Shown here piece by piece: positions 30,022 to 31,994 of a stretch of DNA of 64,000 nt; within the stretch, counting starts at the first letter, position 1, and every line of letters starts with the position of its first letter. The stretch comes from Dictyostelium discoideum (taxonomy: Eukaryota): NCBI GenBank assembly GCA_000004695.1, contig CM000155.2, forward strand, positions 2,368,001-2,432,000. Reading direction: 5' to 3'. Position numbers and translations under genes: made by a program. The notes beneath the pieces are model-generated. The model saw nothing but the letters and a program-made list of their open reading frames with translations, did no database searches and was not told the DNA's origin.

Positions 30022-30312
30022 TTATTTTGGATGAGGTGGAGAAGAAAACTTTTTTAAAATTTCAGAATCAGATAAAGGTTTTGAATTTTCATTTGTTTGT
30101 TGGTTAGCTGTATGATCTTTAATACCTAAATCGTCAAAGAGAGAACCAGTGTCATTTTTAGTATTTTCTTTTGTTTGATTTTTGGTGGATCTTTTTTCTC
30201 CACTTGGTGAATTATAAATTATTAATGCTTCTGTTCCCAAAGGTAGAATTTCATTGGAATTTGGATTTTGTGCTGTTGTTTCAAAGTCAAGGTCTAAAAG
30301 TGTATCTGACAT
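30022..30312 (-). CDS. Small acidic hypothetical protein, 96 aa.
   Basis: Real ATG at 30312. The codon usage is not AT-junk and the sequence is not low-complexity (MSDTLLDLDFETTAQNPNSNEILPLGTEAL...). There is no homology I can recognise. Confidence 0.4.
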   Translation of the reverse strand: MSDTLLDLDFETTAQNPNSNEILPLGTEALIIYNSPSGEKRSTKNQTKENTKNDTGSLFDDLGIKDHTANQQTNENSKPLSDSEILKKFSSPPHPK

Positions 30313-31121: not shown

Positions 31122-31898
31122 TTAATAAATCAAATTAGAACGATGGTAAGCCCTTCCACCATTTGATTGAATTATAAACTCTTCAATTGTTAACATATCA
31201 TTTGAATTATCTCTTTTCTCTGAAACTTTTATAAATTCTTCAACTGTTAAAAGATCTTCATTATCTTCATCCTCCTCTTCTTCTTGTTGTTCTATGTTTT
31301 GATCAGCATAGTATTGTTGATTTACATTATTATTATTGTTATTGTTATTATTATTATTATTAAAATTATTATTTATATGATGATGATTACGTGGTGAAGA
31401 TGACATTGGTGAAGAGGAAGAAGAGGAAGAATTCTTTTTCTTTCTTTGTAAAGATAAAGATGCTAAAGATATTGGTGATTCAACATCGTCCTCATCCTCA
31501 CCTTCAATTCTAATACTATTACTACGACTATTTCTATTACTTGGTTCTCTACAACTTAATATAAATTCTTCGACTGTCATTAAATGATTTTCATTTTCAA
31601 TTGTATCATCTTCAACAATTGTTCTATTTATTCTACCACTACCACTTGCACTGCATGTAGTATTTCTTCTTCTACCACCACCAATATTACTACTACTACT
31701 ACCACCATACGATACACCAACTCCATTTTCATTCTCTGCTTCAATTTGATTTAAACCTAATATAAATTCTTCAACAGTCATTAAATCATTTTCATTACTT
31801 ATATTTACAATACTATTCTTTCTACTACCATTACCACCAATTCCATCTTGTGAGCATGCTTCTTCTTCATCTTGTATACTTTCATTTGATGGATTATA

Positions 31899-31941
<43 letters not shown>

Positions 31942-31994
31942 GATGATGAAGGTACTGAATTTGTTCTTTTTCTTGAAAGTGGATTAAATCTCAT
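31122..31994 (-). CDS. Hypothetical 290-aa protein with four copies of a [DH]-L-[ML]-T-[VI]-EEFI motif and poly-N/poly-S tracts.
   Basis: Real ATG at 31994. The four motif copies are NDLMTVEEFILGL, NHLMTVEEFILSC, EDLLTVEEFIKVS and NDMLTIEEFIIQS. Confidence 0.55.

Follow-up and report, generated by a model that had tools for sequence, protein, structure and literature searches.

A disordered, acidic protein of Dictyostelium discoideum with four conserved short motifs, predicted to form self-capped helices, that may serve in docking

Repeated short helical motifs on a disordered chain are a well-known principle. LGN/AGS3 contains four GoLoco motifs and calpastatin four inhibitory repeats; in both, some four short helical motifs are placed on flexible linkers and each engages a copy or domain of a folded partner. 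The 290-aa protein of Dictyostelium discoideum described here has a similar architecture, but there is no sequence relationship with either of them. The way in which its predicted helices start also has a described counterpart. GSTs carry an N-capping box together with a hydrophobic staple, the latter running from L153 to I158 (PMC9959719). This type of helix start and the motif of the 290-aa protein have in common an S or T at the N-cap, an acidic residue at N3, hydrophobic residues at N' and N4 and a helix, predicted in the case of the motif, right after the Thr. The GST-type start is a generic local element inside folded domains, whereas the motif stands alone, four times, in a disordered chain and has additional conserved flanks, NxN[DH] upstream and I/L after the Phe. 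We propose, with a probability of about 0.5, that the 290-aa protein is a disordered, acidic protein restricted to Dictyostelia and that one or several folded partners dock onto its four pre-formed helical motifs.

The gene is located on the minus strand of the window, the whole 64-kb stretch of D. discoideum DNA that was analysed (G+C 23%), and ORF analysis shows one uninterrupted frame from ATG to TAA. Orthologues are present in D. purpureum (DICPUDRAFT_99242, 201 aa) and in Acytostelium subglobosum (a hypothetical protein of 193 aa). The features of the D. discoideum gene are the following, with the helices taken from the structure prediction discussed below.

31122..31994, minus strand: CDS in a single exon, coding for 290 aa and a stop; acidic product with much N, S and E, predicted to be disordered
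31956..31994, minus strand: conserved N-terminus MRFNPLSRKRTNS, residues 1-13
31899..31940, minus strand: poly-Asn tract of 14 N, residues 19-32; species-specific low complexity that neither orthologue has
31752..31796, minus strand: copy 1 of the motif, NENDLMTVEEFILGL, residues 67-81; predicted helix 74-81, beginning after T73
31545..31595, minus strand: copy 2, NENHLMTVEEFILSCRE, residues 134-150; predicted helix 141-149, beginning after T140
31218..31265, minus strand: copy 3, DNEDLLTVEEFIKVSE, residues 244-259, with an acidic run before it; predicted helix 251-259, after T250
31164..31211, minus strand: copy 4, DNSNDMLTIEEFIIQS, residues 262-277; predicted helix 270-277, beginning after T269
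31125..31163, minus strand: C-terminal tail NGGRAYHRSNLIY, from the alignment

The net charge of the D. discoideum product is -21, at one end of the range of -12 to -21 found over the three orthologues, and disorder-promoting residues make up 67-74% of the chain in these three proteins. The linkers had been described as S/N-rich in an earlier reading of the sequence alone, which agrees with the composition of the product (N 58 and S 42, together 100 of the 290 residues). Besides the motifs, the three-way alignment shows a conserved acidic patch and a conserved start, MRFNxLSRKRTNS, in which M1, R2, S7, R10 and N12 are invariant. A regex scan for the basophilic kinase consensus RxRxx[ST] found RKRTNS/RKRTNT in D. 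discoideum and D. purpureum and RRNS in Acytostelium, and we regard this N-terminal element as a putative basophilic kinase site. The tail YHRSNLIY is identical in D. purpureum and has diverged in Acytostelium. Upstream of the gene, the intergenic segment 32190..32315 consists of a (TA)n run followed by very long poly-T, including one stretch of about 60 T, a composition typical for AT-rich Dictyostelium intergenic DNA. On the plus strand, an antisense ORF of 56 aa (31584..31754) is a low-complexity artefact. A tRNA scan of the window gave no genes.

On a public Dictyostelium contig of 2.2 Mb the 290-aa ORF is annotated as a gene, lying between a C2/copine gene and a gene for a PCI subunit of eIF3, and both neighbours were confirmed in the window by Pfam. 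Two public contigs of more than 1 Mb encode a protein identical to the 290-aa product. Adjoining the gene on the same strand is a downstream ORF of 96 aa (30022..30312, minus strand). In D. purpureum, too, the orthologue is followed by a small gene (L002 4551..4859), and the two downstream genes are 61% identical (E 2e-40). The 290-aa gene and its small neighbour thus form a conserved pair, and this microsynteny supports orthology with D. purpureum. The 96-aa ORF is missing from the gene calls of the public contig, and no Pfam family was found for it. Its product begins with MSDTLLDLDF, where LLDLD resembles a clathrin box, and also contains LFDDLGI. The Acytostelium orthologue (L003 6001..6664) occupies 664 bp for 193 codons and has no straight-through translation, which points to a short intron that both Dictyostelium genes lack. 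The Acytostelium gene is flanked by genes for a DSPc phosphatase and an Arf/Ras-like GTPase, unlike the genes in Dictyostelium, so that there is no wider synteny.

Poly-N and poly-S tracts yield long spurious ORFs on both strands, and the ORF could in principle be a chance product of AT-rich, low-complexity DNA and not a gene. This is extremely improbable, since the start and the four motifs are conserved in D. purpureum and Acytostelium and the tail in D. purpureum, dN/dS is well below 1, synteny is conserved and independent annotations call the gene. The 290-aa gene is real and conserved, and the possibility that it is not a gene is effectively excluded.

The product contains four copies of [LM][LMV]T[VI]EEFI, which start at residues 71, 138, 248 and 267 and read NDLMTVEEFILGL (L71), NHLMTVEEFILSC (L138), EDLLTVEEFIKVS (L248) and NDMLTIEEFIIQS (M267). 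All four stretches quoted in the sequence-only reading are present in the translation. Two of its details have to be corrected: the pattern [D/H]L[M/L]T in its title misses copy 4 (D-M-L-T-I), whereas the pattern given above fits all four, and the spacing, stated as 40-70 residues, is 67, 110 and 19 residues when measured from start to start. The strand, which that reading did not give, is minus. The repetition is not due to chance. The 6-mer TVEEFI occurs three times in the product and none of 5000 protein shuffles reached three. A six-frame scan of the whole window found no fifth copy. The T-[VI] codons differ between the copies (act gtt, aca gtc, aca gtt and aca att, respectively), and these synonymous differences indicate old duplicates that are maintained at the protein level. 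Over about 13-16 residues the consensus is N-x-N-[DH]-[LM]-Φ-T-[VI]-E-E-F-I. Among the 12 instances (four copies in three species), the Thr, the Glu three residues after it and the Phe are present in all 12, the residue before the Thr is always M, L or V and the residue after the Phe is always I or L.

All four copies are retained in both orthologues, and in the three-way alignment each has flanks of its own: ...EEFIxxLN for copy 1, NENHLMTVEEFIxSCRE for copy 2, which is the longest block that is near-invariant across all three species, and LLTVEEFIxxSExRDNSxDxLTxxEF for the conserved stretch of copies 3 and 4. The linkers between the motifs differ in length and are unalignable across the species. 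Purifying selection is concentrated on the motifs. Calculated with the Nei-Gojobori method on the D. purpureum coding DNA, dN/dS is 0.08 for the 64 codons of the motif blocks (dN 0.041, dS 0.531), 0.38 for the other 135 aligned codons and 0.32 overall. The distance between copies 3 and 4 is exactly 19 residues in each of the three species, whereas the other spacings vary two- to threefold (67, 38 and 27 residues between copies 1 and 2; 110, 75 and 64 between copies 2 and 3). The constant spacing suggests that copies 3 and 4 function as one unit rather than as independent beads. Acytostelium and Dictyostelium are on the two major branches of Dictyostelia. Since both branches carry the arrangement, the four-copy layout is probably as old as the common ancestor of these two genera.

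Structures were predicted with AlphaFold2 from an alignment of the three sequences, in two runs with either D. discoideum or D. purpureum as the first sequence. The pTM was 0.18 in both runs and the chain is non-globular in the models; pLDDT was below 50 for 197 of the 290 residues in D. discoideum and for 100 of 201 in D. purpureum, but as the alignments comprise only three sequences, such failure to fold supports disorder only weakly. The motifs are predicted to be helical at pLDDT values of about 60-78, with flanks below 50, and in both modelled species each motif helix begins at the residue after the invariant Thr:

D. discoideum: helices 74-81, 141-149, 251-259 and 270-277; invariant Thr 73, 140, 250 and 269
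D. purpureum: helices 49-57, 87-98, 162-171 and 181-188; invariant Thr 48, 86, 161 and 180

The D. purpureum model contains one extra helix (138-145). The motif matches an N-capping box, with T at the N-cap and E at N3, combined with a hydrophobic staple of the i/i+5 type, with Φ at N' and F at N4. The suggestion made from the sequence alone that each copy might form an amphipathic helix, for which a check with AlphaFold was proposed, is therefore borne out in part: each copy is a short predicted helix in an otherwise disordered chain, but the hydrophobic moment of the motif helices is only moderate (0.28-0.34, against a protein-wide median of 0.20 and a 95th percentile of 0.46). With such a moment 'amphipathic helix' is an overstatement, and 'self-capped mini-helix exposing V/F/I' is a better description.

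In a database of 5.8 billion proteins, neither a single-sequence search nor a profile search, the latter flooded with low-complexity words, went beyond the two dictyostelid orthologues. When 1.84 billion representative proteins were searched exhaustively with an HMM profile of the three proteins, the two orthologues and one further protein (P0003) were found. The profile search that had been proposed as a check on the motif turned up only the two dictyostelid orthologues and a protein that matches in the motif alone. The clustered protein collection does not contain the exact D. discoideum protein and never gave a self-match, and paralogues within the species lie outside these searches. Nor did the searches bring up any other protein with the motif that would point to a shared docking code. 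A search with a 40-aa profile of the concatenated motifs gave no candidates, none of the 391 pattern matches obtained by scanning metagenome contigs with back-translated motif patterns was a relative, and a literature search found nothing on the motif strings or the D. purpureum locus tag. As far as seen, the protein is restricted to Dictyostelia, and its family is unnamed and absent from Pfam.

P0003, which alone among the matches of the exhaustive search lies outside Dictyostelia (E 2e-5 for the sum of six stretches), is a single-exon protein of 1466 aa (L004 2001..6401) on a 5.4-Mb contig of the ENA assembly ERZ25066843. It consists in part of 33 tandem repeats with a perfect period of 18 aa, ...PRDMTVEEYLKSIEDEE, and its Pfam matches are repeat artefacts. 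The core D-M-T-V-E-E-[FY]-[LI] is common to P0003 and the 290-aa protein, but in P0003 it forms a strict 18-residue tandem array without the NxN[DH] flank, and the remainder is unrelated. Most likely the two have arrived at the same helix-start sequence by convergence. The P0003 locus has a G+C content of 39%, and near the C-terminus of the protein there is a second repeated motif, [ST]xF[AV][VIL]TG, in six copies.

The sequence-only reading did not recognise the motif from any named domain, and no significant assignment to one was obtained: searches of the PDB by sequence and by profile gave nothing significant, the motif profile found no chain at E<=10, and Pfam gave only a sub-threshold match of SAND (PF01342) to one copy. 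This match, on copy 2, scores 20.7 bits against a cut-off of 22 bits and covers profile positions 31-64 of 76. The corresponding match in D. purpureum scores 18.3 bits and Acytostelium has none. All SAND scores (20.7, 18.3 and 12.4 bits) are below the cut-off and cover 23 to 34 of the 76 positions. The segment 'W-F-T-P-x-E-F' of SAND and copy 2 both have a T-x-x-E-F helix start. A KDWK-like motif, [KR][DN]W[KR], is absent from all three orthologues, and Trp is absent altogether from the D. discoideum and D. purpureum proteins. On account of the missing Trp, the missing KDWK-like motif and the sub-threshold scores we reject a SAND domain. The best PDB match is the chromodomain of CDYL (2dnt; E 0.63 over 29 residues), of which the C-terminal strand and helix, with the segment EDDTWEPEQHLVNCEEYI, are aligned with copy 2 and its upstream acidic flank EDDTIENENHLMTVEEFI. 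A chromodomain is rejected as well, since the match is not significant, there are no aromatics upstream of copy 2 and Pfam gives no chromo match. The likenesses to SAND, to the tail of the chromodomain and to the EF-hand arise because each of these has a helix beginning Φ-[ST]-x-x-E-[FYL], and the resemblances of copy 2 to SAND and the chromodomain are probably this shared helix-start pattern.

A number of short motifs were also considered and rejected. The only LIR-type pattern is the one at copy 3 in D. discoideum and D. purpureum, without a Pfam match, and the WH2 regex has no matches, again without a Pfam match. By inspection, the [DE]QR triad of GoLoco is absent (Pfam gives no match either), the L-to-F spacing is wrong for PAM2 and the T-to-F spacing is wrong for the Nrf2 ETGE motif. 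Also by inspection, the Phe is at +4 and not at +3 as in the FHA/BRCT-type pT-x-x-[FY], a Fbw7 degron lacks its Pro at +1, and the motif is internal and ends in F-I, other than the TPR-clamp motif TIEEVD-COOH of Hsp70/Hsp90. Acidic dileucine motifs and clathrin boxes in the 290-aa protein were dismissed by inspection as not conserved.

A degenerate EF-hand was one of the known repeat families that the sequence-only reading named as a match that would overturn it, and the corresponding rival is that of degenerate EF-hand-like Ca2+ sites, made up of a loop and the exiting helix. The loop and the motif do correspond in register: hhalign places the motif on the hands of calmodulin with N-x-N-D-L-M-T-V-E-E-F at loop positions 3-13, so that N/D, N/D, a hydrophobic residue, T, E (the second of the motif) and F are found at positions 3, 5, 8, 9, 12 and 13. 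The columns matching positions 3 and 5 are N/D/E in 10 of the 12 instances, position 12 is Glu in all 12, and the fixed spacing of copies 3 and 4 resembles a paired unit. However, the hhalign probabilities against the four calmodulin hands are 10.6% and 0.2%, no EF-hand model of Pfam matches the full protein, its orthologues or the isolated motifs at E<=10, and the motif profile finds none of the many EF-hand chains in the PDB. The canonical loop regex has no matches. Loop position 1 is D/N/E in only 5 of the 12 instances, mostly being I/R/N/P rather than Asp, Gly is never found at position 6, which is D/H/E/P, and the models show no entering helix upstream. The spacings, either 19 or varying from 27 to 110, differ from the approximately 36 residues of paired hands, and 19 is too short for a canonical pair. 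Calcium sites of this kind are thus very improbable. It is improbable, to a lesser degree, that the four helices are structural and pack into a small bundle, intramolecular or oligomeric, in which the N/S-rich linkers form the loops. The helices are of similar length and are the only hydrophobic clusters of the chain, and the fixed spacing of copies 3 and 4 has a helix-loop-helix-like appearance. Yet no packing is seen in the AlphaFold2 models (pTM 0.18 for each species), the helices, at 8-10 residues, are short for bundle formation, the linkers between copies 1 and 2 and between copies 2 and 3 vary two- to threefold in length, and the net charge is -12 to -21. Quite improbable, too, is a nuclear acidic activator or shuttling protein in which V-E-E-F-I, a ΦxxΦΦ pattern by inspection, acts as transactivation domain or CRM1 NES and the N-terminus, with its basic RKR, as NLS. 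In D. discoideum and D. purpureum, copies 1, 2 and 4 have the pattern Φ-xx-Φ-xx-Φ-x-Φ, but none of the Acytostelium copies does; activation domains are normally not conserved residue by residue, whereas T, E and F of the motif are invariant, and Pfam finds no DNA-binding domain. We consider these three explanations, EF-like sites, bundle and activation domain or NES, to be less likely.

A specific sub-case of docking is that each copy is an LxxIxE-type motif for PP2A-B56, so that the protein would recruit or titrate up to four tethered holoenzymes as a sponge, or would be a heavily targeted substrate. B56 binds the LxxIxE motif in extended form. Of the catalogued linear motifs, LxxIxE is the only one that fits, which makes B56 the sole candidate partner from among them. 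The motif is defined as [LMFI]xx[ILV]xE, in which the Glu at P6 never varies and either P1 is Leu or P4 is Ile, and acidic or phosphorylated residues at P2 and P7-P9 enhance binding (PMC10970375). In the three species, 11 of the 12 instances agree with this definition; these are all L..V.E or M..I.E, so that each keeps one high-affinity determinant. The motifs sit in predicted disorder, and Thr at P3 has a precedent in a reported B56 motif, LSTLPE in HBc (PMC10970375). Against this, the regex is low in information, with roughly one chance match per 300 aa as an estimate, and the B56 code does not include the residues that vary least, T (P3), F (P7) and I (P8). P2 (M/L/V), P7 (Phe in 12/12) and P8 (I/L in 12/12) are hydrophobic and not acidic or phosphorylated, copy 4 of Acytostelium (LLTFGE) breaks the rule, and there is no conserved basic patch upstream. 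Moreover, a helix is predicted from P4 onward, in contrast to the extended bound peptide. We therefore regard B56 as an unlikely partner.

Predicted short helices in a disordered chain, with selection focused on them, form the pattern expected of functional linear motifs. The suggestion of the sequence-only reading, a repeated docking motif whose four copies would give multivalent binding, is compatible with all of these results, and the docking reading, to which we now return, would explain the pattern as follows. The motif Thr would act as N-cap and the Glu three residues later would complete the capping box, while the hydrophobic residue before the Thr and the invariant Phe five residues further on would form the hydrophobic staple (N'/N4). 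A helix that starts itself in this manner would leave a small V/F/I patch exposed in a very polar chain, and such pre-formed helices could dock in hydrophobic grooves on one or several folded partners. Copies 1 and 2 would be carried on flexible linkers of variable length and copies 3 and 4 would be a rigidly spaced tandem unit, which would make the protein a multivalent adaptor or a sequestering factor (sponge). The motif Thr is in a CK2-type TxxE context, and the N-terminal basophilic site together with this Thr would probably provide a phosphorylation switch. Docking, multivalency, phospho-regulation and the identity of the partner are what we infer here; an intramolecular fold, metal binding or a phospho-switch could explain the invariance of Thr, Glu and Phe just as well. 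More tentatively, the docking reading may be extended to the proposal that N-x-N-[DH]-[LM]-Φ-T-[VI]-E-E-F-I is an uncatalogued self-capped mini-helix docking motif for a conserved folded partner of the social amoebae, that the protein is a dedicated multivalent adaptor or sponge for this partner, with two copies free and two in the tandem of fixed spacing, kept since the dictyostelid ancestor, and that it is switched by phosphorylation of the Thr or the N-terminal site.

As things stand, this is one among the many uncharacterised, lineage-restricted disordered proteins of Dictyostelium, and no long-standing question is opened by it. The protein lends itself to study, since the gene is small and intronless, has four short motifs that can be mutated and belongs to a genetically tractable organism. 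The protein also illustrates how a generic helix start, made of a capping box and a hydrophobic staple, can be conserved on its own as an element of a disordered chain. Should the motifs serve in docking, they would represent a new class of linear motif and a regulatory interaction that is specific to the social amoebae.
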